64,000 nt of DNA from an uncultured Candidatus Saccharibacteria bacterium (GTDB taxonomy: Bacteria; Patescibacteriota; Andersenbacteria; UBA10190): the NCBI GenBank assembly GCA_964359735.1, contig CAYHTZ010000003.1:21993-85992 (forward strand), written 5' to 3'. The position numbers and the translations under genes are program-made. The notes under the pieces are model-generated. The model saw only the letters and a list, made by a program, of their open reading frames with translations, ran no database searches and was not told the DNA's origin. How positions within the stretch are numbered: position 1 is the stretch's first letter; each line of letters starts with the position of its first letter. Positions 2,484 to 57,809 of the stretch are shown here, piece after piece.

Positions 2484-3718
2484 CGCTAGAAGCGGCTAAA
2501 ACAATCTTTATGCTCGGCATTGGAGGGACCGGCATGCGAGGGCTGGCGCGCCTTCTCTCTGCCCACGGGAAAACAGTGGTGGGCTCAGACCAGCAATACG
2601 ACGTGATTAAGAATTGGCCAGATCTCAAAGAGTACGACATTGTGCCTGAAGGAGAAGGCGAACGCTTGCTGAAAAAGGCGGACCTCCTGGTGCACACCGA
2701 CGCGGCCGAAAAAGATCACCCACTGATTAAGGCAGCCCAGCGGGAGAATATTCCCGTCCTGGCGTATCAAGAAGCACTGGGGGACTTTTCCCGCTCACTG
2801 ACAACAGTGGCGGTCACAGGCACTCACGGGAAGTCTTCCACGACGGCTTTTCTGGCTCACATTTTAATTGAGGCAGGAGCCGACCCCAATGTGCTCGTGG
2901 GGGCCCCTATGCCGGCGTGGGGTGGGAGTTCGAGAGTGGGGAAGAGCGATCTGTTTATTGTGGAGGCAGATGAATATAGGGAACACTTTCTGACATTCTC
3001 GCCGGCCCATGCCATCATTGTTTCTGTTGATTTCGACCACCCCGACTACTTCAAATCTCTGGAAGACGTGCAAGCGGCCTATGCGCGATTTAAGGCGCGC
3101 ATCGCGTCCGGAGGCGTTGTACTCACGACGGCGGATGTTCAGCATGAAATTGATGATGTGCCCTCTCCTTTGCCTGGGAGACACATGCAGCACAATGCCG
3201 CACTCGCGGTCAAGATGGCAGAGGTGTTGGGAGTGCCCCGCGAACAGGCAGTCGCAGCCCTCAAAACATTTCCGGGGATAGGTAGAAGATTCGAAAGGTT
3301 GGACAAGATTGGGAAGATGGATCTCTTCACAGACTATGGCCACCACCCTGCCGAGATTAAAGCCACCTTCCTGGCCACTCGAGGAAAGTTTGCCGGCCAG
3401 CGCATACTGACGCTGTTCGAAGCTCATACGTTAGAGCGCTTAAAAACTTTTTTTGACGGATACGTGGAAGCCTTATCAGGGGCAGATGGGGTACTCTTGG
3501 TACCAGTGTTTATACCGGCCGGGCGGGAGCACGAATCAGCGGAGGCAAGAGAGTGGCTCCAGAAATTAGAACGAAAACTTCCGGGTATTGTATGGCGTAT
3601 TGACGATTGGAAGGAGCTCCCAGCTCAACTTACGCAACTCTCGGATGAGTTTGACGTGGCCATTGCGTTCACCGCTGGACTCCTAGACGCAAAGTTGAGG
3701 ACTCTTTCCTTTACTTAA
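2480..3718 (+). CDS. murC: UDP-N-acetylmuramate--L-alanine ligase MurC (Mur ligase family)
   Basis: '[16 protein letters not shown]' MurC N-terminal Rossmann motif. '[12 protein letters not shown]' Mur-ligase P-loop. ATGA start/stop overlap with murG. Confidence 0.8.
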
Positions 3719-3731
3719 TAATATCTATGTA

Positions 3732-3759
3732 CCTCTCCATAGATCGATCTATGGAGAGG
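3732..3759. promoter_or_regulatory. 28-bp perfect palindrome CCTCTCCATAGATCGATCTATGGAGAGG (copy 1 of 3), candidate operator
   Basis: Read directly: perfect reverse-complement symmetry. Lies in the 61-nt gap between murC stop (3718) and the PEP-utilising domain gene (start 3780/3804). The same core recurs at 28416-28441 and 28890-28909 flanking a TrpR/YerC-like regulator gene. Confidence 0.5.
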
Positions 3760-3779
3760 TTGCCCGAAGAGGGCTTTCG

Positions 3780-4835
3780 TTGCATAGTCAGCTAGAGCTC
3801 GTAATGATCAAACTTTCGAAAGTATTCACACGTGAACGCTCACTGTTTTACATGCGCATGTGGAATGACAGCGATCGCATGGGCTTTTCCCGCTGGTTGA
3901 GTACTGATGTTCAGAACAATATGTTTTGGCGAGAGGGGAACATTAACAAGATTTCAGTTTGGTATGACCGAGAGGAATACGACCGGCTAGGAGAGCTAAC
4001 GGCCGAAAAACTCCACGTTGATTCAAAGTTATTTGAAAAAATGGTTCGTGTTTTTCACGATCTCTGGCGCCCGATAGCCCCATATGTGCAAAACGGTAAG
4101 CTCATAACATCTGCCGACGAGCTGGAAAAGTTCTACCAAGATGTGGTTGCGTGGTGGTCGGTGATGGCATTGATGTTTCTTATCCCTAATGTGCCAAGAA
4201 TCCCGAGGAAGCAACGTGAGGCGGCGCTGGCACTGCGCGAGAAGGTAGAACTTTTTTCAGATGCAATGGATCACCTCATGGTGCGCTATGTGGTAGAAGA
4301 ACTACCTCAATATAAAGAATTGGCGTGGGTTATGATGCCAGAAGAAGCTATCAAACTTGGTCGCGATGAGCTCTCTCAGTATGAGCTGGATAAGATCCGT
4401 GGGCGACTCCATGGATTCGCTCTCTTAAATGAAAAGATTTGCAGCAGGCAGGAATTGCCAGGCGCTTTAGCGAAGCAGGGAATACAGTTGGAGCAAGAAC
4501 ATACCACGGCGGGGCTGCATGAAATCAGTGGGACGCCGGCCAGCGCAGGAATCGCGCGAGGCAGGGTGCGCCAAATTTTGCTCAAGGAACAGATACACGA
4601 GCTCCAGAAGGGGGAGATCCTGGTGACAGAAATGACTAATCCTAATTACGTACCAGCCATGAAGAAGGCGTCGGCAATTGTCACTGATGAGGGAGGTATC
4701 ACCTGCCATGCGGCTATTGTCAGCCGGGAGCTGGGCAAGCCGTGCGTCATTGGCACTAAAATTGCAACGCGTGTCCTAAAAAACGGCGATGAAGTTGAGG
4801 TAGATGCAGACAAGGGAACAGTGAAGCTGCTTTGA
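3780..4835 (+). CDS. PEP-utilising enzyme mobile (His-swivel) domain protein, no PEP/pyruvate-binding barrel; N-terminal domain of unclear function
   Basis: C-terminus '[50 protein letters not shown]' is the phosphohistidine swivel domain of PEP synthase/PPDK/rifampin phosphotransferase-type enzymes. Start ambiguous: TTG 3780 or ATG 3804. Paralogue at 21879-23297. Confidence 0.7.
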
Positions 4836-4918
4836 CAAGAGATCGTCTGGCTTTAGGAACGGCTCTGGACAAATAGCCAGCAGTTTTGGTATTGTGTTTC
4901 GTTACAAGAACGTTAGTA

Positions 4919-4947
4919 TTGACGAAATGTCAAAAATACTTAATACT
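4919..4947 (+). promoter_or_regulatory. Candidate sigma70-type promoter (TTGACG, 17-nt spacer, AATACT) with an inverted repeat TTGACgaaatGTCAA overlapping the -35
   Basis: Sequence only. Located 9 nt upstream of the ATG at 4956 in a 120-nt non-coding gap. Confidence 0.3.
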
Positions 4948-4955
4948 CAACCGTT

Positions 4956-5972
4956 ATGGAGCACAGTGTAAATATCAACGACCTCACGGAGAAGCTGTTA
5001 AACAGCCTGGATGCCCGTTCCCGGGACATCGTTATTCGTAGATTTGGGCTTAAATCAGGCCAAGCGGAGACCCTGGAAAGCATCGGTAAGGAGTATGGAA
5101 TTACCCGTGAGAGGGTGCGCCAGATTGAGTCTTACACCAAAAAGACCCTGGCAACTTTACGGGAGCAAATAACCCCTCTGGTAGACTTGCTGGAAAAGAC
5201 CTTTGCGGAACACGGGGGGGTTATGGCCGAACCGCATGTCGTAGAGGTGATAGGCGCCGAACCCCAGGTTGTCCGTTTTTACCTGAATGTCTTGCCGGAA
5301 TACATATATGTCACTCACAAAGAGCTTTTCCACCCGCATTGGCGGCATGAACGGCGAGCAGGAGATGACGCCGATAAAATTGTGGAATGCGCTTGCGAAA
5401 TACTCGTTAAGAAGCAGCTGCCCCTTGAGGAGAGCGAGCTGATTGAAAGCGTAAAGGTACGGCTCGCAGGAGAGGGTGGCGCCTTACCTTCGCCTCACAT
5501 TATTGCGGCTTTTGTCGCCAGCAAACCGTTGGAGCGAACTGTGTTTCAGCAGTGGGGGCTAGCCGAGTGGCCGGAGGTGTCCCCCCGCGGAGTAGGTGAT
5601 AAGGCATACGCGGTGCTGCGTCGGCATGGGAAGCCCGCCCACTTCCGTGAAATCGCGAGCATGATTTCCGAGGCTAAATTTGATACGAAGGCAGCTAACC
5701 CCCAAACCGTGCACAATGAGTTGATTAAAGACGACCGCTTTGTACTGGTGGGGCGGGGGCTCTACGGGTTGAAAGAATGGGGATATGTGCCGGGCACCGT
5801 GGCGGATGTTTTAGAGGCAATCCTGCGCCGTGCCAAGGTTCCCATGACGCGCGAGGAGCTCACCGCCGAAGTGTTGAAACAAAGGATTGTTAAAAAGAAT
5901 ACCATTTTACTCGGCCTTCAGAACCACAAGCGGTTCGTGAGAACAGCTGATCAGCGGTACACATTGCGATGA
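4956..5972 (+). CDS. Sigma-70 region-4-like HTH + C-terminal HARE-HTH domain DNA-binding protein
   Basis: N-terminus 'ETLESIGKEYGITRERVRQIESYTKKTL' matches the sigma-70 region 4.2 signature (xTLEEVGxxFGVTRERIRQIEAKAL). C-terminal 'FVLVGRGLYGLKEWGY' matches the HARE-HTH signature seen in RpoE-delta N-terminal domains. Combination called from motifs only. Confidence 0.65.
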   Translation: MEHSVNINDLTEKLLNSLDARSRDIVIRRFGLKSGQAETLESIGKEYGITRERVRQIESYTKKTLATLREQITPLVDLLEKTFAEHGGVMAEPHVVEVIGAEPQVVRFYLNVLPEYIYVTHKELFHPHWRHERRAGDDADKIVECACEILVKKQLPLEESELIESVKVRLAGEGGALPSPHIIAAFVASKPLERTVFQQWGLAEWPEVSPRGVGDKAYAVLRRHGKPAHFREIASMISEAKFDTKAANPQTVHNELIKDDRFVLVGRGLYGLKEWGYVPGTVADVLEAILRRAKVPMTREELTAEVLKQRIVKKNTILLGLQNHKRFVRTADQRYTLR

Positions 5973-11655: not shown

Positions 11656-13020
11656 ATGCGGGATATTCGACCGGTACCTAAAAAACCTCCACTCGGAGGC
11701 ATGCCGCTGCCCAGCGAAGATGAGCTCTATGAAGTATCGCAATCGGCGAAGCAGCGGGGAAGCGAGCGAGCTTCAGTGCCAAGTAAAGCGCTGCGCGGGT
11801 CGCAAGTGCCGGTAACGAATGTGCACGTACCCGCTGAACCATCCCGGCCCCTGTTTGCGAAGGCACCACTCAGGGAGAAGAAACCTAAAACTCGCATCCG
11901 GCTGGGGAGCAAGGAGCGAGCGGCGGTATTAGTCCTCCTTTTAATTGTCGTGGTGGTGGTTTTGCTCAGTGCGGCTATTTTTTTGCCGCGAGCAGACGTT
12001 AAATTGATTTTACGAACGGCACCTCTTTTAGTGGATGAAGACCTGATTGTCCGCGCGGCGGCGGACGGCCCGAATGTTATTCCCGGAGCAACTTTTTTCC
12101 GACAGGTGTCAGTAGAAGGAACTGTCCCGGTCGAAAGTACCGAAATCGTGGGTACGAAGGCGACGGGCACGGTGCAGATTGTAAATCGCACTACTCAAGA
12201 GCAAAAAATCCGCGACAGAAGCCGGCTCATGACGAAAGAAGGGGTACTTTTTTACATGACACGGCATGTCATAGTTGCGCCGGACTCAAGAGCCAGCGTG
12301 GAAGTGGAGGCGGCCGAGGCGGGAGAAGTGGGGAATATTGCGCCGCAGCGGCTTAACTTTGCCGCACTCGACGCCTCGGCTCAGTCGGTAGTGTATGCCG
12401 AAGCAACCGCGGCCATCTCCGGCGGCAAGGGCGAGGAAGTGCGTGTGGTGCGTGAAGAAGATATTGAACGAGCCAGGATAGCCGCCAAAGAAGCCGCCCG
12501 CGCCAAGGTCCAAGAAGAAATTCAAAAAGAACTGCCCAGCGGCTGGGTGCTCCTGGAAGAGAGTTGGACAGCTGATTACGACTCTTTCAAGACAGACGGT
12601 GAGGTAGGCAGCCGGCAACCACAAATTGCTTACTCAGGCAATGCCACGGTACGCGTCTTAGGCTATGAATCAGCCAGGTTAGAAGAGCGTCTCCGCGCTG
12701 CGTTGGAAGAGAGGATCGACCAGGATTACGCGCTCTTCCCGGGGCCAATTTCCTACTCGAAAACAGTGAAAAGCGTGGATTGGGAGAAGGGAGAAGGGGT
12801 AATCGCGACCCGCGTCACCCACACTACGATTCCTGATTTTTCTTTAGAAACTCTCAAGGGGAAAATTGCGCGGCGTGGCGCAGATGAGGCGAAAACGTAC
12901 CTCGAAGGGCTTCCCGGGGTGCAGCGGGTAGAGCTGGCTTTTTCACCCTTCTGGGTGCGTTCGATCCCACGGATTGAAAAGCGAATTAACCTGGAAGTGA
13001 TCCCGGAGCGCCAGCCCTAA
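11656..13020 (+). CDS. Hypothetical membrane-anchored protein (basic cytoplasmic N-tail, single TM, large extracytoplasmic domain)
   Basis: ORF of 454 aa with TM 'AAVLVLLLIVVVVVLLSAAIFL'. No recognised domain. Confidence 0.5.
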   Translation: MRDIRPVPKKPPLGGMPLPSEDELYEVSQSAKQRGSERASVPSKALRGSQVPVTNVHVPAEPSRPLFAKAPLREKKPKTRIRLGSKERAAVLVLLLIVVVVVLLSAAIFLPRADVKLILRTAPLLVDEDLIVRAAADGPNVIPGATFFRQVSVEGTVPVESTEIVGTKATGTVQIVNRTTQEQKIRDRSRLMTKEGVLFYMTRHVIVAPDSRASVEVEAAEAGEVGNIAPQRLNFAALDASAQSVVYAEATAAISGGKGEEVRVVREEDIERARIAAKEAARAKVQEEIQKELPSGWVLLEESWTADYDSFKTDGEVGSRQPQIAYSGNATVRVLGYESARLEERLRAALEERIDQDYALFPGPISYSKTVKSVDWEKGEGVIATRVTHTTIPDFSLETLKGKIARRGADEAKTYLEGLPGVQRVELAFSPFWVRSIPRIEKRINLEVIPERQP

Positions 13021-19536: not shown

Positions 19537-19610
19537 ACCGCAGATGGTAGCACAAACTTTTTGGAATATTTTTCTTGATTTGACAAGCTCTCGGAGGTAT
19601 GATGAGGTTC

Positions 19611-20870
19611 ATGTCGAAATTTGTGATTCAGGGTGGCAAGCCGCTTGCCGGAGAGGTAGAAGTGTATGGGTCAAAGAATGCCGTCCTGCCACTGATTGCA
19701 GCGAGCCTTCTGACCACGGAGCCCTTCACTATTTCTAATGTGCCGGATATTTCCGATGTCAGCACAATGCTCGCCATACTTTCTGGCTGGGGCGCCAAGG
19801 TGAAAAGAGAAGATGGCCAGAGGGGAACGCTGGTAATTGAAACTCAATCTGTTAAAACTGACGGCGCCCAGGACGAGGCGGTCGGGAAGCTTAGGGGTTC
19901 GATCCTTTTCTTAGGGGCCCTCTTGGGAAGAGAGCGTAACGTCAGCCTGCCGCGGCCAGGAGGAGATGTGATAGGCGCCCGGCCGATTGATGTGCATTTG
20001 GATGGCTTCCGGCAGCTGGGTGCTGAAATCAACGAGGAAGGGGATCAGGTGCTAATTTCCGGCCAGGCAATGCAGGCGGGAGAGGTGACGCTCTCAGAAT
20101 TTTCGGTGACGGCCACCGAGAATATGTTGCTGGTCGCCGCGACCCTGCCGGGGAAAACTACCATATACACTGCCGCGGCTGAGCCGCACGTAGTGGCACT
20201 GGCCGGGGCCCTCACCCGCATGGGAGCGAGTATCACGGGGGCAGGTACGCATACTCTGGTGGTAGAAGGCAGTACCAAGCTGGCCGGGGCTACGGTTGAA
20301 AATATTTCGGATATGCTTGAGGCCGGATTTTTTATTCTACTCGCGGCGGCAACAAAATCAGATATGAATATCCGCCAGGTGCCTACGCAGGATTTGCGCC
20401 TCTTTTTTAAGAAGCTCACTCAGATCGGGGTCGCGTACTCAGTTGACCACGACACAGTTACCGTCCGCCCAGCTCCGCTACGCGCTTTTCGCTTGCAAGT
20501 CCTGCCGCACCCTGGCATCGCCACCGACTTGCAGGCGCCGTTTGCTGTGCTGGCTACTCAGACGCAGGGAAGTTCATTGATTCATGACCCGCTCTACGAA
20601 AGCCGTTTCAAGCACATAGATGAGCTCGCAAAAATGGGAGCAGACGCGGTGGTTTGCGATCCTCATCGCGTGATCATTAATGGCCCCACACCTCTCGCGG
20701 GCCGCGAGATCCCGAGCCTCGACATACGCAGTGGGGCTACTCTCGTTATGGCTGGGCTTACCGCCCGCGGGCAAACTACGATTCGGGAAGCAGAAATAGT
20801 GGACCGGGGATATGCACGGCTGACAGAGCGGCTCCAGGCTCTGGGGGCTGATATTCAACGAATCGAATGA
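19611..20870 (+). CDS. murA: UDP-N-acetylglucosamine 1-carboxyvinyltransferase MurA
   Basis: 'MSKFVIQGGKPLAGEVEVYGSKNAVLPLIAASLL' is the MurA N-terminus. ATG 19611 preferred (GGAGG 13 nt upstream) over the ORF-track ATG 19599. Confidence 0.9.
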   Translation: MSKFVIQGGKPLAGEVEVYGSKNAVLPLIAASLLTTEPFTISNVPDISDVSTMLAILSGWGAKVKREDGQRGTLVIETQSVKTDGAQDEAVGKLRGSILFLGALLGRERNVSLPRPGGDVIGARPIDVHLDGFRQLGAEINEEGDQVLISGQAMQAGEVTLSEFSVTATENMLLVAATLPGKTTIYTAAAEPHVVALAGALTRMGASITGAGTHTLVVEGSTKLAGATVENISDMLEAGFFILLAAATKSDMNIRQVPTQDLRLFFKKLTQIGVAYSVDHDTVTVRPAPLRAFRLQVLPHPGIATDLQAPFAVLATQTQGSSLIHDPLYESRFKHIDELAKMGADAVVCDPHRVIINGPTPLAGREIPSLDIRSGATLVMAGLTARGQTTIREAEIVDRGYARLTERLQALGADIQRIE

Positions 20871-21877
20871 ATATTACCCGCCAAATTGCCATCGATCTCG
20901 GGACTACCAGTACGTTGATGTACGTGCCTAAGAAGGGAATTGTGCTCAATGAGCCATCGGTGGTGGCGGTATCGCTGGATGAGAATGCGGTACTGGCCAT
21001 CGGCAATGACGCGAAAGAAATGATTGGCCGCACTCCCGAAACAATTGTGGCCCATCGGCCGCTGAAAGACGGGGTGATTGCGGACTACCGCGTCACGGAA
21101 GCAATGCTCCGCTACCTACTGCAAAAGGCAGGCGCATCCACGCGGTTCCTGCGTCCCGAGGTTCTCGTGAGCGTACCGGCCGGGATCACCAGCACCGAAC
21201 GCCGAGCGGTGGTAGATGCGGCGCTCTCCGCGGGAGCCCGCGCTGCCTTCCTGATAAAAGAACCGGTAGCCGCCGCGATTGGGGCAGGCATTCCGATCGG
21301 GGAAAGCTCTGGGCATATGATCGTAGATATTGGGGGAGGAACTACTGAAGCCGCTGTCATTTCCCTCGGAGGTATTGTGGTAGCCCATTCAGCCCGGGTA
21401 GCTGGCAATCGCTTTGACGAGGCGATTGCCGACCACGTGCGTAAGCGCTATGGCGTTGTGATCGGAGAACAAACGGCTGAGGTGATTAAAAAAACGATTG
21501 GATCAGCCGTCATTGAAGAGACGCCGCGCGAGATGGCGATCCGCGGGCGCGACCTGGCTTCGGGGCTGCCTCGCGAGACCACAATTTCTTCCCACGAAAT
21601 CGCCGAGGCACTGCGCCATCCCTTGGAAGAGGTGTTGCAAGCCATTAAATATGTTTTGCAAGATACGCCACCAGAGCTCGCAGCCGACGTTATCGATAAA
21701 GGCATTGTGCTTTCCGGCGGCGGAGCGTTACTCAAAAATATTGACCAACTTATCTCCCGTACGATTACGGTGCCGGTGTACGTGGCAGACGACCCACTCG
21801 TGTGTGTGGTAAAAGGGGCGGGAGCAGCGCTCGAGAACATCAACGCCTACAAGCGCAGTGTCTTGCTGACGAGGTAA
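20867..21877 (+). CDS. mreB: Rod-shape-determining actin homologue MreB (paralogue 1)
   Basis: 'IAIDLGTTSTLMYVPKKGIVLNEPSVVAV', 'DIGGGTTEAAVISLGGIV'. ATGA overlap with murA. Confidence 0.9.
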   Translation: MNITRQIAIDLGTTSTLMYVPKKGIVLNEPSVVAVSLDENAVLAIGNDAKEMIGRTPETIVAHRPLKDGVIADYRVTEAMLRYLLQKAGASTRFLRPEVLVSVPAGITSTERRAVVDAALSAGARAAFLIKEPVAAAIGAGIPIGESSGHMIVDIGGGTTEAAVISLGGIVVAHSARVAGNRFDEAIADHVRKRYGVVIGEQTAEVIKKTIGSAVIEETPREMAIRGRDLASGLPRETTISSHEIAEALRHPLEEVLQAIKYVLQDTPPELAADVIDKGIVLSGGGALLKNIDQLISRTITVPVYVADDPLVCVVKGAGAALENINAYKRSVLLTR

Positions 21878-21878
21878 T

Positions 21879-23297
21879 GTGAGCGAAGATTGGGTAAAAG
21901 TCGTGGAAAGGCGTGGTCAAAGTGTCCTTATAAGTTCCTATTTCTATAATGGCGTTCGAACTAAGTACTTTCGTAAAACACTGGGAGTTGAGCACGGAAT
22001 TGATCACTACTTGATTGTAGATTTTTTTAACTATTACCTGGAATCTGAAGTGCTCAGATTCCAGGAGGCGATCAAGAGCGAAATTGAAAGCAACGACGCC
22101 AAATTCATTTCTCAGGCTCTTGAACAGCTCACGCGCAAGGGAGAGGAGTTAACTCATCTCGCCACAACTATTTCCAGAACAAAGAATCTGACTGCGCATC
22201 CAGCTTCGTTACTTCAAGAGTTTTCGGAGTTGTGTCTTGAATTTGGCCCTGCTATGTATTTCCCCATTCTCATCGAGCCGATAGTAGAGGCAAGGGCTCT
22301 AAACATTATTCAGCGGAGAATCCCCAAAGAAACCGAAAAATACTTTGCTCTCCTGACTGCTTCTCATCAGCCCACTGATGGAACAAAGGAACTGGTAAGC
22401 TTCTACAGACTTGCCGAGATGTATCACAAGAATCATCGGAAAATCACACTTCCAATTAAGCAAGCAGTTGATAAACACTTGCGGCAATTTGGTTGGCTAG
22501 CATTTACCAAATTCGTTGGCCGCCCATGGACTCAGCGAAGCATCATGGCACGCCTTGAGAAAATACCCAATCCCGGGGAAAGGTTACGTGAGCTCGAGAG
22601 ACAATACAAGCAAGAAAAAATTCAGGTTGAGAAGATCTTTAAGGAATATCAATTTACTAAAGCTGAGCGCGAATTTCTTCGGGAAGTCCAGCATCTGGCT
22701 TACTTTCGAACCTATCGGGTTGATGTGTACTCGAAAGCTGGTTATTTAATTAAGGATTTGCTCAGAATCATTTCCCGCAGACTCGATTTAACGGTTGCGG
22801 AGACAGTCTGGCTCACGTATGAAGAGATTCTTTCTCACCTTAGACGAGGGAAAAAATTCCCTAGGAAGATTGCCCGAAAACGTCAATACGGGACTTGGCA
22901 GCTGCTTTTTGAAAAAGGAAAAATGACGTTTCAGTACGAACCGCCATTCTTGGTGAAGGAACAAAAGCTCGATATTAACATTGTCAAAGGAACTCCCGCC
23001 TGTAGTGGGAAAGCCGAAGGACCCGTTGCGATAATCCGCGGAGTCAAGGAATTCGATAAAATGACTGATAAGGCCATTCTTGTCACCTCTATGACCACAC
23101 CAGACTTTGTGCCCCTAATGCAGCAAGCCGCTGCCATTATAACTGACGAGGGCGGCATAACGTGTCACGCAGCTATCGTTTCGCGAGAGCTCGGCGTGCC
23201 ATGTGTCATTGGCACTAAAATTGCGACCAAGGCTCTCAAAGACGGCGATGTCGTAGAAGTGGACGCAGATAAGGGACTAGTGCGAAAGCTGGCCTAG
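21879..23297 (+). CDS. PEP-utilising enzyme mobile (His-swivel) domain protein, long paralogue of 3780-4835
   Basis: C-terminus '[51 protein letters not shown]' nearly identical to the 3780 gene. The upstream 370 aa align with the 3780 protein over its length plus an extra N-terminal region. Confidence 0.7.
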   Translation: MSEDWVKVVERRGQSVLISSYFYNGVRTKYFRKTLGVEHGIDHYLIVDFFNYYLESEVLRFQEAIKSEIESNDAKFISQALEQLTRKGEELTHLATTISRTKNLTAHPASLLQEFSELCLEFGPAMYFPILIEPIVEARALNIIQRRIPKETEKYFALLTASHQPTDGTKELVSFYRLAEMYHKNHRKITLPIKQAVDKHLRQFGWLAFTKFVGRPWTQRSIMARLEKIPNPGERLRELERQYKQEKIQVEKIFKEYQFTKAEREFLREVQHLAYFRTYRVDVYSKAGYLIKDLLRIISRRLDLTVAETVWLTYEEILSHLRRGKKFPRKIARKRQYGTWQLLFEKGKMTFQYEPPFLVKEQKLDINIVKGTPACSGKAEGPVAIIRGVKEFDKMTDKAILVTSMTTPDFVPLMQQAAAIITDEGGITCHAAIVSRELGVPCVIGTKIATKALKDGDVVEVDADKGLVRKLA

Positions 23298-25346: not shown

Positions 25347-27983
25347 ATGGCACTTTTTGGGCTTTTCAAAACTACTTCTCGTCATGAGAAGGCCGCTACC
25401 ACCTATACCGGAACGGTAGAGGCTATCAATAAACTCGCGCCTGAAATGAAAGCGCTTTCTGATGAGGCGTTGGCCGCACGCGTTACCCAGCATAAGGGAA
25501 AAAGCTGGGAAGACCTGCAAACACATGTGGCTGAAATTTTTGCGGCGGTGAGAGAAGCATCCGACCGGACCTTAAAGCTGCGGCACTTTGACGTGCAGCT
25601 CACCGGGGGGCTGGCGCTGCTGGAGGGAAGGATCGCGGAAATGAAAACTGGAGAGGGTAAAACTCTGGTGGCAACGCTGCCTCTCACCTTCGCGGCGCTC
25701 GCAGGCCGCGGGGCTCACTTGGTGACAGTCAATGACTACCTCGCTCGCCGAGACGCCGAATGGATGGCGCCTATTTACCGTTTCTTTGGTCTGTCGGTGG
25801 GGATAGTGGTGCCGGGGCAATCCAGCGAAGAGAAACGTGCGGCGTATGCGGCTGACGTCACCTACGGCACAAATAATGAATATGGCTTTGATTACTTGCG
25901 CGACAATATGGCGCAGCGGCGAGAAGACTTGACCCAGCGGGAGCTTACCTATGCGATTGTGGATGAGGTCGACAGCATCTTAATTGATGAGGCGAGAACA
26001 CCTCTCATTATCTCGGCGCCGGATGCCGAATCCACGCAGCTTTATGTGCAATTCGCGAGGCTGGTGCCACAGCTCAAAGAGAACGTTCACTATAACTTGG
26101 ACGAAAAGCGCAAGGCGGCGACATTGACAGACGATGGGGTAAATGAAGTGGAACGAATTTTAGGTATGAGCAATATCTATGAGGAAAAGGGCGTCCGGTT
26201 TGTGCACCATTTAGAACAGGCACTCCGGGCTCATTCGCTCTATCATCGCGATAAAGATTACGTGGTACAAGACGGACAAGTAAAAATAGTCGACGAGTTT
26301 ACCGGACGTATTCTCGAGGGCAGGCGGTATTCTGAGGGCCTCCACCAAGCGCTGGAAGCTAAGGAAGGAGTAGCAGTACAGCAAGAAAGCCGGACACTCG
26401 CTACAATCACTTTCCAGAATTACTTCCGTTTGTACCAACGGCTCGCCGGCATGACCGGCACCGCCGTCACCAGCGCCGAAGAGTTTGAGCGCGTATACAA
26501 CTTAGAAGTGGTAGTCGTTCCCACCGACAAGGCCATGGTTCGAAACGATAGAACCGACCGCGTGTTCGTGAATGAAAATGCAAAGTTCCAGGCCGTGGTG
26601 AAAGAGATTAGGGAACGCCACGCTAAAGGGCAGCCGGTGCTGGTGGGCACCATTGCGATCGAAAAATCGGAGCGCTTATCGGCCTATTTGCAACGGGAAG
26701 GAGTCCCGCATGAGGTGCTGAATGCTAAACACCACGCGCGCGAGGCGGAAATTGTGGCCAAGGCGGGGCAGAAGGGAACAGTCACTATTTCAACTAACAT
26801 GGCCGGCCGCGGTACTGACATTAAGCTGGGTCAAGGAGTGGTGGATCTCGGCGGGTTATTCATTCTGGGCACTGAGCGGCATGAAGCCCGGCGCATCGAC
26901 AACCAGTTGCGGGGAAGATCTGGCCGCCAAGGAGACCCAGGAGAAACACAGTTCTTTGTCTCACTGGACGATGATGTCATGCGCATCTTCGGAGGAGATC
27001 GGATTAAGAACCTCATGCAACGCCTCAAGTTGCCGGAAGACGAGCCCATCGAAAACCGAATGGTCAGCCGCGCTATTGAAAGCGCGCAGGAGCGGGTAGA
27101 GGGCTACTACTTCGACATGCGCAAACATGTCCTCTCCTACGACGACGTGTTGAATCGCCAGCGCAATGCAATTTATACCTTGCGTAAGAGTGTCTTGCTC
27201 GACGGCAAGTGGAAAGATTTTGGCAAGGAATCGCGGGAATTACCCGCCGCCATTCAAGATGTCATCCGCGACCAAGCCGGGGAGTTTGTACGAGCGCACA
27301 CCGGTGAGGGCAGACCGGAAGATTGGGATTTGGAGGAGTTGCGCGAGATTGTATTCACGCTGACGGGCAAGCGGGAGACATTTTCGGTGGATGATTCTGA
27401 CGGCATAGAATCCGCTCGAGAGAAATTGACTGAAGACGTAGCCAAGGCGCTCCTGGGACGGTTAGCAGAACGTGAAAAACAATTTGGCAGCGATGTTATG
27501 CGCGCGCTCGAGCGTGCCGCTACACTGCGGGCAATTGACACGTACTGGATGGAGCACCTAGATACCATGGATTACCTGCGGACGGGGATTGGGCTGCGCG
27601 GCTACGGCCAGAAAGACCCGTTGGTTGAATACCAGCGAGAGGGGCACCAGCTCTTCCAGCGCCTCCTAGCTACCATCAAAGGCACGATCGTGGAAATTGT
27701 GTTCAAGGCTGAGCCCACTATGGCTGAGCGGGCGTCGGCAGAGGAGCAGCCCAAAGGGGTTACCGCCCAACACCAAGAAGTCTCCTTGCACCAAACGGCG
27801 ACCGGGGCCGCCTCCGCTCCGGCCGGAGCTTCGGCGAGCCAAGGCAGCCAGCGCGTACAAACGTCAGTCGAGCCACTCAAAAACCCTTACAAAAATGTCG
27901 GCCGCAACGACCCATGCCCGTGCGGCAGTGGCCTAAAGTACAAGAAGTGCGGCCTGATTAATGCCCCTCAACACCGTGGATAA
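25347..27983 (+). CDS. secA: Preprotein translocase ATPase SecA
   Basis: 'MKTGEGKTLVATLP' Walker A, DEAD-like 'VDEVDSILIDEARTPLIIS', C-terminal zinc-binding 'CPCGSGLKYKKCG'. 878 aa. Confidence 0.95.
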   Translation: MALFGLFKTTSRHEKAATTYTGTVEAINKLAPEMKALSDEALAARVTQHKGKSWEDLQTHVAEIFAAVREASDRTLKLRHFDVQLTGGLALLEGRIAEMKTGEGKTLVATLPLTFAALAGRGAHLVTVNDYLARRDAEWMAPIYRFFGLSVGIVVPGQSSEEKRAAYAADVTYGTNNEYGFDYLRDNMAQRREDLTQRELTYAIVDEVDSILIDEARTPLIISAPDAESTQLYVQFARLVPQLKENVHYNLDEKRKAATLTDDGVNEVERILGMSNIYEEKGVRFVHHLEQALRAHSLYHRDKDYVVQDGQVKIVDEFTGRILEGRRYSEGLHQALEAKEGVAVQQESRTLATITFQNYFRLYQRLAGMTGTAVTSAEEFERVYNLEVVVVPTDKAMVRNDRTDRVFVNENAKFQAVVKEIRERHAKGQPVLVGTIAIEKSERLSAYLQREGVPHEVLNAKHHAREAEIVAKAGQKGTVTISTNMAGRGTDIKLGQGVVDLGGLFILGTERHEARRIDNQLRGRSGRQGDPGETQFFVSLDDDVMRIFGGDRIKNLMQRLKLPEDEPIENRMVSRAIESAQERVEGYYFDMRKHVLSYDDVLNRQRNAIYTLRKSVLLDGKWKDFGKESRELPAAIQDVIRDQAGEFVRAHTGEGRPEDWDLEELREIVFTLTGKRETFSVDDSDGIESAREKLTEDVAKALLGRLAEREKQFGSDVMRALERAATLRAIDTYWMEHLDTMDYLRTGIGLRGYGQKDPLVEYQREGHQLFQRLLATIKGTIVEIVFKAEPTMAERASAEEQPKGVTAQHQEVSLHQTATGAASAPAGASASQGSQRVQTSVEPLKNPYKNVGRNDPCPCGSGLKYKKCGLINAPQHRG

Positions 27984-28404
27984 CGACCACCAGAAACAGA
28001 GAATTCTGGGCTTTCTCAAACATCACCAGATAGGTGTAATTGCCACTACCAAGAGCGGTTTGCAGCCAGAAGCGGCGGCGGTTGAATATGGAGAAACAGA
28101 AGACTTGGAACTTATCATTGATACGTTTGTGAATTCCCGAAAATGGGGGAATATCCAGAAAAATCCCCGGGTAGCCTTTGTCGTTGGTTGGGATCAAGAT
28201 ATTACAGTGCAATACGAAGGCAGGGTAACTCAATTGCAGGGTGAAGAGCTTACGAAGAGTAAGAATACTTACTTTGCGAAAAATCCACGCGCTCAAAAAT
28301 GGGAAGGGAGAGAAGGGGTTATATATTTCAAGATTGTTCCCACCTGGATTCGCTATACAGATACAAATAAGAATCCTTGGGAAATATTTGAACTCACCTT
28401 TTAG
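27961..28404 (+). CDS. Pyridoxamine 5'-phosphate oxidase-like FMN-binding split-barrel protein
   Basis: 'ILGFLKHHQIGVIATTKSGLQPEAAAVEYGE...NPRVAFVVGWD' typical PNPOx-like family pattern. 147 aa. Confidence 0.7.
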   Translation: MPLNTVDNDHQKQRILGFLKHHQIGVIATTKSGLQPEAAAVEYGETEDLELIIDTFVNSRKWGNIQKNPRVAFVVGWDQDITVQYEGRVTQLQGEELTKSKNTYFAKNPRAQKWEGREGVIYFKIVPTWIRYTDTNKNPWEIFELTF

Positions 28405-28415
28405 AACTCATCAAT

Positions 28416-28441
28416 CTCTCCATAGATCGATCTATGGAGAG
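28416..28441. promoter_or_regulatory. 26-bp perfect palindrome CTCTCCATAGATCGATCTATGGAGAG (copy 2 of 3)
   Basis: Read directly. Lies between convergent stops of the PNPOx-like gene (28404) and the TrpR/YerC-like gene (28432-28434, overlapping). Could act as a bidirectional hairpin or second operator. Confidence 0.45.
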
Positions 28442-28884
28442 GCTCTGCGAGAGCCGACCACAGATTCGGAAATGCCGCGAGTGATGAGATCAATAATCAG
28501 CCAGCGTGGATCGCGATGTCGGAGACGGGGAATGAGGTTACGCCTGTGCTGCTCACGCCACTTCTCATCACGCCGTTGCCTAGCACGGATTTCGTGATAG
28601 TCGCGTACAACATGCTTAAGCCAGCCATCAACTGATTGAATAGTCGAAAAACCAATGCCAGTTTCTTCACGGACAGTATAGTACGACTTCCCCTGCAATA
28701 AGCCCTCAGCAGCCTGCAAACGGCGGCCAATCATGATGAGCTCGCTTGCTGTAAGCAGTCTCGACAAGAATTCGTATAACTCTTTTTTCGTCTTCAAGCC
28801 GTGGAGCGCTTCCACGAGAGGGTCAATAATCGCCTTCCGTTCTTTCATGCTCAGGGCGGCGTAATCAAACCGGGGCATACTCAT
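28432..28884 (-). CDS. TrpR/YerC/YecD-family DNA-binding protein (Trp-repressor-like HTH)
   Basis: 'LLTASELIMIGRRLQAAEGLLQGKSYYTVREETGIGFSTIQSV' matches the YerC/YecD TrpR-like HTH (LLTPxExxMxxxRLQxAxxLLxGxSYREIxxxTGxSxATISR). ATG 5 nt from the 28890-28909 palindrome. Confidence 0.75.
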   Translation of the reverse strand: MSMPRFDYAALSMKERKAIIDPLVEALHGLKTKKELYEFLSRLLTASELIMIGRRLQAAEGLLQGKSYYTVREETGIGFSTIQSVDGWLKHVVRDYHEIRARQRRDEKWREQHRRNLIPRLRHRDPRWLIIDLITRGISESVVGSRRASP

Positions 28885-28889
28885 ACCTT

Positions 28890-28909
28890 ACCATAGATCG
28901 ATCTATGGT
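28890..28909. promoter_or_regulatory. 20-bp perfect palindrome ACCATAGATCGATCTATGGT (copy 3 of 3) in the divergent promoter region
   Basis: Read directly. Sits between the divergent starts of the TrpR/YerC-like gene (28884, -) and the TIM-barrel gene (28951, +). Confidence 0.5.
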
Positions 28910-36324: not shown

Positions 36325-37341
36325 ATCGGGATTGATTTAGGCACTGCCAATACGCTCGTGTACGTGCGAGGCAAAGGCATTGTGATCAACGAGCCGTCAG
36401 TAGTGGCGCTTAACAAGAAAACGAATGAAGTGCTAGCCATTGGAAAGGAAGCCCAACGTATGGTGGGCAAAACGCCGGCTCACATCGTCGCCGTCCGCCC
36501 TTTGAAAGATGGCGTTATTTCCGACTTTGAAGTGACCGAACAAATGCTGCGTTACTTTATTCAGAAAGTTCATGAAGAGGCCTTCGCACTCTTGGCGCGG
36601 CCGCGGGTGGTAGTAGGGCTCCCTAGCTCGGTTACGGAGGTAGAACGAAGAGCAGTAGAAGAAGCGAGCCTCCGAGCCGGCGCCCGGGCGGTATTTTTGA
36701 TTGAAGAGGTTATGGCGGCGGCCATTGGCACGAGGCTGCCTGTCCATGAGGCCACTGGCAGCTTTATCGTCGACGTGGGTGGGGGAACAACAGATATCGC
36801 GGTCATATCGTTAGGCGGCATTGTGGTTAGTAAGACGCTGCGCGTGGCTGGAGACGAGATGAATGAAAGCATTGTCCAGTACGGACGTGATAATTTTAAT
36901 ATCTTAATCGGAGAAAGAACTGCCGAGGACCTGAAAATTCGTATCGGGGCAGCCACTGAGCTTCCTGAGATGTTAGAAGCCCCGCTGCGGGGCCGAGATC
37001 TGGTGACTGGGCTGCCTAAGGAGGTAGTGATTAATGCGATGCAAGTGCGAGAGGCGCTGTTGCGCCCTACCAGCGCGATTGTGGAGGCAGTGAAGGGAGT
37101 GGTAGAGGAAACTCCGCCTGAACTCATCGCTGACATTATTGACCAAGGTATCCACTTGGCGGGTGGCGGGTCGCTCTTGCGCGGCCTGGACCAGGTTATA
37201 TCGGCGGCAACCCAAATTCGAGCGCGCGTGGTAGATGACCCGCTGACGGCGGTGGTGCGCGGCACAGGCGTAGTTCTCGAAGACGTGGAAGCGCTCCACG
37301 AAGTGCTGCTCCCCAGCGTGCATGGCACACAGTTGAAATAG
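36325..37341 (+). CDS. mreB: Rod-shape-determining actin homologue MreB (paralogue 2); start codon non-canonical/uncertain
   Basis: '(FSQD)IGIDLGTANTLVYVRGKGIVINEPSVVAL...' The essential IDLGT phosphate-1 motif is encoded upstream of the first GTG (36358). Only ATC (36325) or ATT (36331) are available in frame after the proS TAG stop at 36292-36294. Followed by mreC-mreD-PBP2. Confidence 0.8.
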   Translation: MGIDLGTANTLVYVRGKGIVINEPSVVALNKKTNEVLAIGKEAQRMVGKTPAHIVAVRPLKDGVISDFEVTEQMLRYFIQKVHEEAFALLARPRVVVGLPSSVTEVERRAVEEASLRAGARAVFLIEEVMAAAIGTRLPVHEATGSFIVDVGGGTTDIAVISLGGIVVSKTLRVAGDEMNESIVQYGRDNFNILIGERTAEDLKIRIGAATELPEMLEAPLRGRDLVTGLPKEVVINAMQVREALLRPTSAIVEAVKGVVEETPPELIADIIDQGIHLAGGGSLLRGLDQVISAATQIRARVVDDPLTAVVRGTGVVLEDVEALHEVLLPSVHGTQLK

Positions 37342-50154: not shown

Positions 50155-52194
50155 ATGATAAACGCTTTGAGCTTTTCGCTGATTGTGCCGGTGGCCGCAC
50201 TGCTTTTTGTGTGGTGGCTGTACCGGTGGATCATGGCGAAAGATCCGGGCTCGGCAGAAATGCAGGAGATCGGGGGTGCCATTCAGGAAGGGGCGGCCGC
50301 ATTCTTAAAGCGTCAATATAAAACCATTGCCGTGATCGGCATCGTGGTAGCGGTAGCCCTCTGGGTCATGTACAGCTTGCTGGGAAAGGGGGATTTGGGG
50401 CAGCACACAGCGGTTTCTTTCCTCTTAGGAGCCATTCTCTCAGCTGTTTCAGGAGTGATCGGCATGATGGTGGCCGTACGCACCAATGTGAGAAGTGCGG
50501 CCGGAGCCAAGCACGGCTTTGCCGAGGCGCTCACGATTGCGCTACGGGGCGGGGCTGTCTCGGGTATCACGATTGTGGCGCTCAGTTTAATCGGCATCGC
50601 CGGGCTATTCATGGTGTATCAGTGGCTCGGATTTGCAACTGAAGAAATTCCTTCCTTGATCGTCGGCTTCGGTTTCGGAGCTTCTTTGGTGGCTTTGTTC
50701 GCGCAACTGGGCGGCGGCATCTACACCAAAGCGGCGGACGTCGGCGCAGATTTAGTCGGAAAAATTGAAGCAGGTATTCCCGAAGACGATCCGCGTAACC
50801 CGGCAGTCGTGGCAGACTTGGTGGGCGATAATGTAGGGGATTGCGCCGGGCGCGGAGCAGATTTATTTGAGTCAACCGCGGCGGAAAATATTGGGGCCAT
50901 GATCCTGGGCGTAGCGCTCTTTCCCGTGTTCGGGGTAGCGGGCATTTTCTACCCCTTGGTACTACGCGCGTTTGGGCTGATTGCTTCTGTGGTTGGCGTC
51001 ATGGCGGCTCGTAGCAGAAACACGGATAGCCCGATGGCGGCTTTGAATCGGGGTTTCTACGTCACGGCGGCGCTAGCGGCCGTAGCGTTTTACTTCGTGA
51101 CCGACCAAATGCTCGGGAACACCTGGTTCTTCTGGACGGGTTTGGTGGGTATCGCTACAAGTCTTGTCTTCATCTACATCACACAGTATTACACCGAAGC
51201 GAAGTACCGCCCGGTTAAGGAAATAGCTGAGGCTTCTCAAACAGGGCACGGCACAAACATTATTTCCGGTTACGCCGTGGGTTTGGAATCAACCGGGCTG
51301 ACGGTGCTCACAATTTCCATCGCACTCTTCGTGGCATATAAGCTCGGGGTCATGTCGGGAGTGGAAGGCGGGGGACTCTACGGCACGGCAGTGGCCACGA
51401 TGGGAATGTTAGCCACGGCGGCATACGTGCTCGCTATGGACACGTTTGGGCCGATTGTCGACAACGGCGCAGGTATTGCAGAGTTCGCAGGCGCGGGAGA
51501 TTCCATGCGCGAAGTTATGGATAAATTGGATGCAGCCGGCAACACGACGAAAGCTTTAACGAAAGGGTATGCCATCGGCAGCGCGGCCTTGGCAGCGTTC
51601 TTGCTCTTTACGGCGTACTTGGAAGAAGTTCACCTCGAAGTGGTGGACTTAGCCAAAGTGGAAGTCTTCATCGGGGCTTTGGTAGGTGCCACGCTGGTGT
51701 TTGTGTTCTCCTCATTCGCGATTCGCGCGGTCAGCAGGGCAGCGTACTCCATCATCAACGAAGTTCGCCGGCAGTTTAAGGAACGCCCAGGGATCATGGC
51801 CGGCACAGAAAAGCCGGATTACTCTCGAGCAGTGGACATTACGACGCAGGGTGCGCTCAAGCAAATGATTTTGCCGGGTATGCTGGCAGTGGTTGTGCCC
51901 GTGGCCGTCGGCCTCTTACTGGGAGCTGAAGCGGAAGCGGGACTCATTATGGTAGGCACGATCGCAGGCATTTTGATGGCCACGCTGATGAACAACGCCG
52001 GTGGAGCCTGGGATAATGCGAAGAAATGGATTGAGCAAGGCAACTTGGGCGGTAAAAAATCTCCGACCCATCAAGCGGCTGTTACCGGGGACACAGTAGG
52101 CGACCCATTTAAGGACACCGCCGGGCCTTCACTGCACGTTTTGATCAAACTCCTGGCCACGCTGACCTTGGCGCTCGCCCCACTGTTTATCTAG
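50155..52194 (+). CDS. hppA: Membrane-bound H+/Na+-translocating pyrophosphatase
   Basis: 'GGGIYTKAADVGADLVGKIEAGIPEDDPRNPAVVADLVGDNVGDCAGRGADLFES' and 'GDTVGDPFKDTAGPSL' signatures. 679 aa, about 16 TM. Confidence 0.9.
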   Translation: MINALSFSLIVPVAALLFVWWLYRWIMAKDPGSAEMQEIGGAIQEGAAAFLKRQYKTIAVIGIVVAVALWVMYSLLGKGDLGQHTAVSFLLGAILSAVSGVIGMMVAVRTNVRSAAGAKHGFAEALTIALRGGAVSGITIVALSLIGIAGLFMVYQWLGFATEEIPSLIVGFGFGASLVALFAQLGGGIYTKAADVGADLVGKIEAGIPEDDPRNPAVVADLVGDNVGDCAGRGADLFESTAAENIGAMILGVALFPVFGVAGIFYPLVLRAFGLIASVVGVMAARSRNTDSPMAALNRGFYVTAALAAVAFYFVTDQMLGNTWFFWTGLVGIATSLVFIYITQYYTEAKYRPVKEIAEASQTGHGTNIISGYAVGLESTGLTVLTISIALFVAYKLGVMSGVEGGGLYGTAVATMGMLATAAYVLAMDTFGPIVDNGAGIAEFAGAGDSMREVMDKLDAAGNTTKALTKGYAIGSAALAAFLLFTAYLEEVHLEVVDLAKVEVFIGALVGATLVFVFSSFAIRAVSRAAYSIINEVRRQFKERPGIMAGTEKPDYSRAVDITTQGALKQMILPGMLAVVVPVAVGLLLGAEAEAGLIMVGTIAGILMATLMNNAGGAWDNAKKWIEQGNLGGKKSPTHQAAVTGDTVGDPFKDTAGPSLHVLIKLLATLTLALAPLFI

Positions 52195-56702: not shown

Positions 56703-57809
56703 ATGCGCCTATCAGCTACTCTCGCAGTTTCCCTGAGCCTACTTTTAGTTCCCATGGTAGGACTCGCGGCGGTATTTGTAACCGACGAAGAAACAGCGCA
56801 GTTGACTGAATCAGTGAGCGATGACGTATATGCCGCGAGCCAGACAGTGCGCATTTCTGGAAATGTAACAGGAGACGTAGCGGCGGCCGGGGAGAAAGTG
56901 GAGATTACTGGCAACGTAACACAGGACGTGCACGCGGCTGGGGAAACGGTAAGCCTTGAAGGCGAGGTTGGTGATGATGTGCATGCGGCGGGAGCAAACG
57001 TGGCACTCTTGGGAAAAGTAGCGGGTGACGCTTTCTTGGCGGGATCCGAGGTTATGGTGGGTGAGGAAGCATCGGTTGGCGGAGATGTATATGCGGGTTC
57101 TTCGAATTTGGTTATCTCCGGCAACGTACAGGGAGATGTATGGGCGGCTGGGCAGGTCCACGTTACGGCGGGAGCGGTGATCAACGGAGGTCTCCTCGTT
57201 ATGAGCAACGAAGCTCCAGTGATCGATGAAGGGGCTCAAATCGCTGGCGAAGTGAAATTGGAAGCGTTGACACACGATGACCGCGAGCGCCCCTTTCAGC
57301 TCATGGGGTGGGTACGGTCAGTGGTTTCTCTCTTTATAGTTTCGCTGGTGCTCGTGTACGGTGCACGGGCGCTTACCACATCAACGGTACGCACGGTGGT
57401 AACGAAGAGCTGGCGATCCCTCTTAGTGGGAGGGCTCTGGACTCTTCTTTTTGTTCCGGTCAGCCTTATCTTGCTCGTTACTATCGCGGGTATTCCTCTC
57501 GCTTTGGGGGTGCTGGCGTTCAGTGTTCTCGCGTATATCATGGCAACAGGCATCGCTGCTGCCCACGTAGGCCGGTGGATCATGGGGAAAGTGGCTCGAG
57601 AGGGCACCCAGGAAATAACCTGGGCGCATGCGTTGTTGGGAGCCGTAGTGTATGAAAGCGTACAACTCCTGCCCGGGGTGGGAGAACTCCTCACATTTAT
57701 TTTGGTTCTCTTCTTCTTGGGGGCAACTCTCTTAACATTCTTTAACTTAATCCGCCACCATTATGGCAAACCAAGTGCAGGCGCTCAGCAAAACCCAGCC
57801 TCCGCATAA
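56703..57809 (+). CDS. Bactofilin-repeat (polymer-forming cytoskeletal, DUF583-like) protein with signal/TM N-terminus and C-terminal multi-TM domain
   Basis: Repeats 'ISGNVTGDVAAAGEKVEITGNVTQDVHAAGETVSLEGEVGDDVHAAGANVALLGKVAGDAFLAG...' typical of bactofilin beta-helix rungs. Hydrophobic C-terminal third. Confidence 0.55.
   Translation: MRLSATLAVSLSLLLVPMVGLAAVFVTDEETAQLTESVSDDVYAASQTVRISGNVTGDVAAAGEKVEITGNVTQDVHAAGETVSLEGEVGDDVHAAGANVALLGKVAGDAFLAGSEVMVGEEASVGGDVYAGSSNLVISGNVQGDVWAAGQVHVTAGAVINGGLLVMSNEAPVIDEGAQIAGEVKLEALTHDDRERPFQLMGWVRSVVSLFIVSLVLVYGARALTTSTVRTVVTKSWRSLLVGGLWTLLFVPVSLILLVTIAGIPLALGVLAFSVLAYIMATGIAAAHVGRWIMGKVAREGTQEITWAHALLGAVVYESVQLLPGVGELLTFILVLFFLGATLLTFFNLIRHHYGKPSAGAQQNPASA

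Follow-up and report, generated by a model that had tools for sequence, protein, structure and literature searches.

In Escherichia coli, the trp, aroH, and trpR operators of TrpR are dyads of 18 to 20 bp that overlap the promoter, and the regulator gene is autoregulated. Members of the broader group of TrpR/HisR proteins also bind palindromes of 18 to 20 bp and often autoregulate (PMC9413887). One of them, YerC, is HisR, the histidine repressor of Firmicutes. Its operator is the 20-bp palindrome cacTTTA-N6-TAAAgtg, and autoregulation is seen in about half of the genomes; the structure of HisR from Eubacterium eligens is available as 3G1C (PMC9413887). In the literature, we found no regulator-operator pair described for the Patescibacteria (CPR), and no description of the dyad motif discussed below or of a CPR TrpR-like regulon.

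Here, we present a concrete candidate for such a pair, comprising an 18- to 30-bp site, a 148-aa protein, and three natural targets, all of them encoded in a single 64-kb stretch of DNA (referred to below as the window). The DNA comes from a Patescibacteria-type, ultra-small organism sampled from Hainich groundwater (well H51, 0.1-µm filter fraction). In our assessment, the palindrome at positions 3731 to 3760 is probably a DNA operator of the TrpR/HisR (YerC)-family protein encoded on the minus strand at positions 28432 to 28878 and acts in the manner proposed below. The class of mechanism, a palindromic operator of an autoregulated TrpR-family repressor, is well known, so that this is an ordinary gene switch in a little-studied lineage. 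What appears to be new is the motif, the C-terminal extension of the protein, the putative pair of operators that brackets the regulator gene, and the CPR host.

Three copies of the palindrome in the window

The original prediction described a perfect 28-bp palindrome located between murC and a gene for a protein with a PEP-utilizers (phosphohistidine swivel) domain. The 28-mer CCTCTCCATAGATCGATCTATGGAGAGG is indeed present at 3732 to 3759, and the dyad is perfect, although its length had been underestimated: the palindrome (site 1) spans 30 bp, from 3731 to 3760 (ACCTCTCCATAGATCGATCTATGGAGAGGT). It also lies closer to murC than the 21 nt given in that prediction, since the murC stop codon ends at 3718; the 30-bp palindrome is located 12 nt past this stop, and the 28-mer begins 13 nt after it. 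Three replicate metagenomes of one well, each assembled independently (L003 to L005), contain the identical site 1, which rules out an assembly artifact.

The window contains exactly three copies of the 18-bp core of site 1 (CCATAGATCGATCTATGG; 3737 to 3754), located at 3737, 28420, and 28891. The view that three copies exceed chance expectation is borne out by dinucleotide-preserving shuffles of the sequence, which contained on average 0.02 matches, with none of the 100 shuffles reaching three. As had also been proposed, the dyad at 3731 to 3760 is the same element as the two dyads that flank the gene of the TrpR/YerC-like protein, and all three copies are either intergenic or overlap a stop codon. 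Site 2, a perfect 26-bp palindrome at 28416 to 28441, is found between the TrpR-like gene and the convergent gene of a PNPOx-like protein (27961 to 28404, plus strand) and overlaps the TAG stop codon of the former; the 28-mer recurs here, at 28415 to 28442, with a single mismatch. Site 3, a perfect 20-bp palindrome at 28890 to 28909, lies directly 5′ of the TrpR-like gene, just ahead of its start, with a divergent gene for a xylose isomerase-like TIM-barrel protein on the other side. Read on the minus strand, site 3 forms part of a longer feature (28885 to 28909) that includes an extended -10-like element, TGG-TAAGGT (28885 to 28893), which ends 6 nt before the ATG at 28878.

Searches for weaker sites in the window returned only CCAGTGATCGATGAAGGG at 57216 to 57233, which is asymmetric, lies inside a bactofilin-domain gene (56703 to 57809), and is probably a chance match. 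A scan of 185,579 representative genomes with the 18-mer produced just two unrelated matches, both inside coding sequence. The corresponding scan of metagenomes produced 7 loci, including the window's own site 2 (L008) and an informative, partial orthologous locus (L012). Loci L001, L002, L006, L009, L010, and L011 were judged to be chance matches, several of them inside ORFs; a search of viral contigs for further family loci found none.

The TrpR-like protein and its orthologous loci

The TrpR-like ORF was first read as encoding a 150-aa protein (28432 to 28884, minus strand). Because its orthologues all begin with MPRFDY, MAKFDY, or MGKFNY, the start was assigned to the second ATG, at 28878, which yields a 148-aa protein (28432 to 28878, minus strand) that begins with MPRFDY and carries at its C terminus a conserved extension of about 50 aa. 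Residues 21 to 99 of this protein match the Trp_repressor domain (Pfam ID PF01371; 45.0 bits with a cutoff of 27; E value of 1.1e-11), which is carried by 8 of 8 homologues; with the YerC/YecD model TIGR02531, the score of 41.3 bits is a borderline miss against the cutoff of 42.2. The AlphaFold model (pLDDT of 78) has a TrpR-like all-helical fold, with a helix-turn-helix (HTH) formed by helices D and E, and the C-terminal extension is modeled as a prolonged helix followed by one more helix. The best Foldseek matches are 3KOR, 3FRW, and 3G1C (TM scores normalized to the target of 0.69 to 0.79), followed by the E. coli TrpR structures 1TRR and 1TRO. By sequence, too, the nearest solved structures are 3FRW, 3KOR, and 3G1C and then E. 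coli TrpR.

The protein resembles HisR (YerC) in its membership in the PF01371 family, in its nearest solved structures, in the presence of a palindromic putative operator of about 20 bp, and in the location of such a site before its own gene. It differs from HisR in the motif, which is CCA-N3-ATCGAT-N3-TGG, as opposed to the HisR consensus cacTTTAnnnnnnTAAAgtg, and in the residue that aligns with the conserved DNA-contacting Arg84 of TrpR/HisR, which is an invariant Ser here and forms part of the likewise invariant helix GFSTIQSVD. Further differences include the C-terminal tail of about 50 aa, the second site past the stop codon, and the CPR/Patescibacteria host. HisR controls genes of histidine biosynthesis or transport; no his genes were found within the 64-kb window. 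The likeness to E. coli TrpR lies in the fold, both of its structures being among the fold matches, and in a putative operator dyad of 18 to 20 bp that overlaps the predicted promoter of the regulator's own gene, whereas the sequence similarity is marginal (E values of about 0.1 to 0.6), the operator sequence is different, and the locus described here has an extra downstream site.

A profile search against 1.84 billion representative proteins retrieved 292 relatives at an E value of ≤1e-10, most of them 135 to 165 aa long, so that the long form constitutes a sizeable subfamily. The long-form relatives that were inspected (P0249 to P0272) end in a hydrophobic motif of the FLLINLLLD, DPRWLLIDLL, or HFLLINLLLD type. 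In contrast, the short HisR/TrpR proteins lack this hydrophobic C-terminal motif of the long form, whose extension in the window comprises residues 100 to 148 (28432 to 28578). Oligomerization and membrane association are both possible roles for this motif.

For the comparison of the regulator loci, 8 homologues were identified in a collection of 5.8 billion proteins, the contigs of five of these were fetched, and L012 was added from the 18-mer scan of metagenomes. The resulting six orthologous loci, which come from other metagenomes and encode proteins with 51 to 75% identity, share the layout of the window. A dyad is found 5′ of the regulator ATG in all six loci for which the upstream sequence is available (the window and L013 through L017), with 12 to 13 nt separating its TGG from the ATG. 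The core of the dyad is CCA-N3-ATCGAT-N3-TGG, where the central ATCGAT and the outer CCA and TGG are invariant apart from single mismatches. The N3 triplets vary by genome (TAG/CTA, TAC/CTA, CAT/ATG, or TTC/GAA), with symmetric changes, and the two sites of any given genome agree. The promoter-proximal arm extends in each of the six loci into TGG-TAAGGT, TAACAT, TAGGAT, or TAGAAT, which fits the extended -10 pattern TGnTAnnnT (here, TGGTAnnnT or, more narrowly, TGGTA(A/G)nnT) and ends 6 to 7 nt before the regulator ATG. No Shine-Dalgarno sequence was found between the extended -10 element and this ATG in the six loci. This arrangement suggests an extended -10 promoter and a leaderless mRNA for the regulator gene, with the dyad covering the -10 element and the spacer.

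A second dyad is located 9 to 85 nt past the regulator stop codon, usually between convergent genes. It is present in 5 of the 6 loci in which both ends of the gene are visible (the window, L013, L014, L015, and L017), as well as in the partial locus L012; L016 lacks the downstream dyad. In L012, the identical 28-mer is found 3′ of the yerC-like orthologue, whose product is 70% identical to that of the window and whose flanks have diverged. The genes around the regulator vary from locus to locus and include those for PNPOx, ASCH, ParB, DprA, and dTDP-sugar isomerase, which leaves the regulator gene as the sole constant partner of the dyad. No copies of the dyad other than those at the regulator gene were found in the 11 to 20 kb of the related loci.

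The invariance of ATCGAT, the agreement of N3 within each genome, and the sites in promoter position argue for a cognate operator rather than a generic or structural hairpin, and the TrpR/YerC-like regulator very likely recognizes the dyad. An operator shared with this regulator is well supported by the phylogenetic footprinting. The recognition helix, GFSTIQSVD, is invariant across the eight orthologues, although N3 varies; accordingly, N3 changes without an obvious specificity code, and covariation of the recognition helix with the operator was ruled out as a simple code. The start of the first HTH helix is variable (Y/E/Q67 and T/H/N68) in the few sequences at hand.

From these comparisons, we infer binding of the dyad, repression rather than activation, control by an effector, and a function for the downstream site. 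The regulator, presumably a dimer as in TrpR, would read CCA-N3-ATCGAT-N3-TGG together with pyrimidine-rich outer arms (CCYNCCA...TGGNRGG). The site at its own gene overlaps the extended -10 element of the predicted leaderless transcript, which would result in autorepression. For the second site, just past the stop codon, two roles are conceivable: an auxiliary operator that permits looping, or a roadblock to convergent transcription. As a functional analogy only, this resembles O1/O2 of LacI and OE/OI of GalR: here, a promoter site and an identical downstream site are separated by 470 to 565 bp and would permit looping. However, LacI and GalR belong to an unrelated protein family, the downstream site lies here beyond the gene and not inside it, and the C-terminal helices are a candidate for any oligomerization beyond a dimer. 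Among the observations that count against the operator reading are the length and perfection of the 26- to 30-bp palindromes, which exceed those of most operators and would also allow a stable RNA or DNA hairpin to form, and the location of half of all sites at the 3′ ends of convergent genes, where terminators might be expected.

The inserted segment and the possible role of site 1

The window was confirmed to encode FtsW, MurG, a Mur ligase, a PF00391 protein, and a PF01371 protein. In two relatives (L020 and L021), whose MurC is 68% identical to that of the window, the genes are arranged in the order mraY, murD/L, ftsW, murG, murC, and a gene combining sigma-70 region 4 with a HARE-HTH domain (the sigma-r4 gene), and neither the PEP-domain gene nor any dyad or palindrome is found between murC and the sigma-r4 gene. 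The murC gene of the window aligns with those of the relatives through TTGAGGACTCT (3695 to 3705; murC codons L-R-T-L) and then diverges. Homology resumes from 4867 with GGACAAATAG (4867 to 4876), the counterpart of the end of murC in the relatives (..LDK*), which is followed by a conserved promoter-like intergenic region. Between these points lies a plus-strand segment of about 1.16 kb (3706 to 4866) that carries the dyad and the PEP-domain gene, is absent from the syntenic relatives, and is inserted into the 3′ end of murC. The junctions are marked by an imperfect direct repeat, with TTGAGGACTCT on the left and TTAGGAACGGCTCT (4853 to 4866) on the right, the latter directly followed by the murC-end remnant (together, 4853 to 4876). 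On its 5′ side, the insert has a lower GC content (0.45 to 0.47) than the flanks (0.53 to 0.58); terminal inverted repeats are lacking, and the dyad is found at just one of its ends. The same difference could also stem from a precise deletion in L020 and L021, which is less likely than an insertion into the murC 3′ end. Because the dyad and the PEP-domain gene are missing together from L020 and L021, the dyad belongs with this gene rather than with a conserved end of the dcw cluster, and the link between dyad and gene is strengthened by the fact that both form one insertion in the window.

Judging from the position of site 1, the PEP-domain gene is a plausible member of the regulon of the TrpR-like regulator, and the co-insertion strengthens this assignment. 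A single insertion brought the third site and the PEP-swivel gene into the dcw cluster and most likely put the acquired gene under the TrpR-like regulator. This illustrates how a putative regulatory site can arrive with an acquired gene, here inserted at the end of an essential cell wall operon. At site 1, the bound regulator could either occlude a promoter that fires close to or at the palindrome or block transcripts reading through from murC. A promoter-like element consisting of TTGAGG (3695 to 3700) and AATAAT/TAATAT (3717 to 3724) with an N16/18 spacer is present on the plus strand (3695 to 3724). It is a consensus match only, at chance frequency, as the promoter scan found 6 promoter-like sites versus 6.1 expected. 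Transcription from this element would begin at about position 3730, at the first base of the palindrome, with the operator at +1 to +30. No convincing promoter was found for the PEP-domain gene, and there is no good one between the dyad and the gene.

The latter observation is in line with a protein-dependent roadblock or insulator, where the regulator at site 1 would chiefly stop dcw read-through into the inserted gene, as opposed to controlling a promoter of that gene, and at site 2 would likewise stop convergent transcription into the regulator gene. Such a role draws on the same predicted binding as the operator reading, and it also fits the arms of site 1, CCTCTCC...GGAGAGG, which are of the type seen at the downstream sites (site 2 and those of L012, L015, and L017) and not of the promoter type, TGGTAGGAT. 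Since site 1 has arms of this 3′-end type, a roadblock to murC read-through is slightly favored over promoter occlusion as the action at this site. However, transcription from the promoter-like element described above would start with the first base of the palindrome, in line with classical operator placement, and roadblock and operator action cannot be separated by sequence alone; we regard the roadblock as an improbable explanation of the dyad as a whole.

Another possibility is that the dyad functions as an RNA hairpin, protein binding being irrelevant, and either ends the ftsW-murG-murC transcript (at site 2, both convergent transcripts) or stabilizes the mRNA end. A strong RNA stem of 13 bp, capped by a UCGA loop, is predicted, with free energies of -21.8 to -29.1 kcal/mol and z-scores of -4.4 to -5.5, and few other strong hairpins are found in the window. 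Site 1 follows the murC stop at the 12-nt distance given above, convergent genes flank site 2 and its counterparts at the orthologous loci, and a stable GC-containing stem-loop right past a stop codon is a feature of intrinsic (Rho-independent) terminators. Unlike these, however, the dyads are not followed by a U-tract, whichever strand is read; their tails read TTGCCCGA, CTCTGCGA, and ATTGATGA, and terminator scans did not report them. The dcw-syntenic relatives L020 and L021 lack a hairpin after murC. The sequence itself is kept, as seen in the identical 28-mer of L012 and the invariant ATCGAT, whereas a structural hairpin needs pairing only. The motif is also present at the untranscribed promoter of the regulator, between divergent genes, and the two sites of one genome share their N3, which is not required of a cis-acting hairpin. 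The terminator reading is thus not supported, and we consider it unlikely; the proposed termination of the dcw-type murG-murC unit at this site is contradicted by the missing U-tract, the relatives without a hairpin after murC, and the conservation of sequence beyond pairing.

A mobile or selfish dispersed palindrome, such as a REP/RAYT-like element or a cassette recombination site with the TrpR-like gene as the protein of the element and the PEP-domain gene as its cargo, is very unlikely: the small regulator gene is bracketed by palindromes in different neighborhoods across genomes, as are RAYT genes by REP elements, with an extra intergenic copy elsewhere, and the dyad and the PEP-domain gene are inserted, with a lower GC content than in the flanks and a direct repeat resembling a target-site duplication, but the bracketed 148-aa protein is a TrpR-fold HTH regulator that matches only the Trp_repressor and YerC/YecD profiles and has no HUH (Y1) transposase, DDE, or tyrosine/serine recombinase domain, copies are very few (three in 64 kb, and in the related loci only at the regulator gene), the insert has the dyad at one end without terminal inverted repeats, and the secA-...-dyad-yerC order is syntenic between the window and L012, so that no movement of the unit is visible among close relatives.

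Two further ideas were rejected. A link to restriction-modification or Dam methylation through ATCGAT/GATC is contradicted by the 14 observed ATCGAT sequences versus 10.8 expected, the normal frequency of GATC, and the variants without GATC in L015 to L017. The idea that the GGAGAGG arm chiefly serves to hide a Shine-Dalgarno sequence was discarded, since this arm is 20 nt from the TTG at 3780, is out of frame with nearby starts, and is palindromic on both strands.

Within the operator reading, a wider and more tentative proposal is that a TrpR/HisR-like subfamily, probably specific to Patescibacteria and distinguished by the C-terminal extension, brackets its own gene by two identical operators, forming either a repression loop or a protein-dependent terminator or roadblock in genomes that are poor in intrinsic terminators, and that the operator travels with inserted cargo genes. 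We consider this proposal possible but doubtful. If true, it would mean that acquired genes, here an RPH-like phosphotransferase module in the 3′ end of murC, are wired straight into the circuit of the regulator.

The PEP-swivel gene and other genes of the window

The gene downstream of site 1 had been predicted to start at 3780. The TTG codon at this position is a possible start, with AGAGGG 6 nt upstream and the dyad 20 nt away, and would yield a 351-aa protein. However, ATG 3804 is the more probable start because the resulting 343-aa protein (3804 to 4835, plus strand) matches the NCBI call (P0009) and the orthologues of 343 to 345 aa. A small GC hairpin, GCCC-gaaga-GGGC, followed by TTTCGTT, is located on the plus strand at 3762 to 3774 and overlaps the Shine-Dalgarno-like AGAGGG motif of TTG 3780. 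Exact look-ups of P0009 and of the 150-aa version of the TrpR-like ORF found neither of them on record.

The PEP-domain protein contains PF00391 alone, at its C terminus (95.5 bits), with a TDEGG..CH motif, including H302, that is invariant across 56 homologues. Its AlphaFold model (pLDDT of 95) finds its best matches among solved structures in the Listeria rifampin phosphotransferase (RPH-Lm; 5FBT and related entries), covering the substrate-binding and swivel-His domains only. In contrast to the complete rifampin phosphotransferase, it has no ATP-grasp domain, and the search for such a domain (PPDK_N) found none either in this protein or elsewhere in the window. CPR and DPANN genomes encode thousands of members of the swivel-domain family, most of which lack annotation. 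Because the putative target gene belongs to this large, uncharacterized family of "headless" rifampin phosphotransferase-like proteins, which is common in these two groups, knowing its regulator could help find the substrate.

The PEP-domain protein is not the orphan that the original prediction took it to be, as the window encodes a second swivel-domain paralogue at 21879 to 23297. This 472-aa protein is 62% identical to the product of 3804 to 4835 over the last 103 residues only, and there is no dyad near its gene, which directly follows murA (19599 to 20870) and mreB (20867 to 21877). The nearest homologues of the PEP-domain protein, in L018 and L019 (approximately 52% identity, possibly paralogues), have no upstream dyad. 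In L018 (7450 to 20119), a PPDK_N (ATP-grasp) gene is followed by nine genes for PEP-utilizers swivel-domain proteins of 340 to 513 aa, with purine biosynthesis genes adjoining. This array suggests split kinases, in which one nucleotide-binding subunit would serve interchangeable substrate modules.

Several other features of these regions deserve mention. The intergenic stretch 5′ of the gene for the sigma-70 region 4 and HARE-HTH protein is strongly conserved between the window (4884 to 4955), L020 (11222 to 11297), and L021 (10626 to 10721). It contains an inverted repeat, GTAACGT...ACGTTAC, and after it TTGACG-17-AATACT, with 8 nt between the end of the latter and the ATG, which suggests a further leaderless, regulated promoter. 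The protein encoded downstream (4956 to 5972) combines an N-terminal sigma-70 region 4 with a HARE-HTH domain (RNA polymerase delta-like; TIGR04567, 46 bits) in residues 215 to 275, an unusual architecture that is kept in L004, L020, and L021. The part of the dcw cluster that lies upstream of the window includes a fused MurL-epimerase/Mur-ligase of 790 to 880 aa (PF26299, PF26298, and Mur_ligase_M), which is encoded at 2536 to 5187 in L003, 5401 to 7791 in L020, and 4829 to 7207 in L021.

The window also encodes two full-length MreB paralogues, one in the mreB gene that precedes the swivel-domain paralogue (20867 to 21877) and the other at 36358 to 37341, where it is followed by mreC and a PBP2-type transpeptidase gene, as well as a membrane H+-pyrophosphatase (50155 to 52194). 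Finally, a 454-aa protein with a weak match to the Baseplate_J-like domain is encoded at 11656 to 13020 and, syntenically, at 17065 to 18408 of L021, between alaS and rpsM-rpsK-rpsD-rpoA; this is an odd location for a phage baseplate-like domain.
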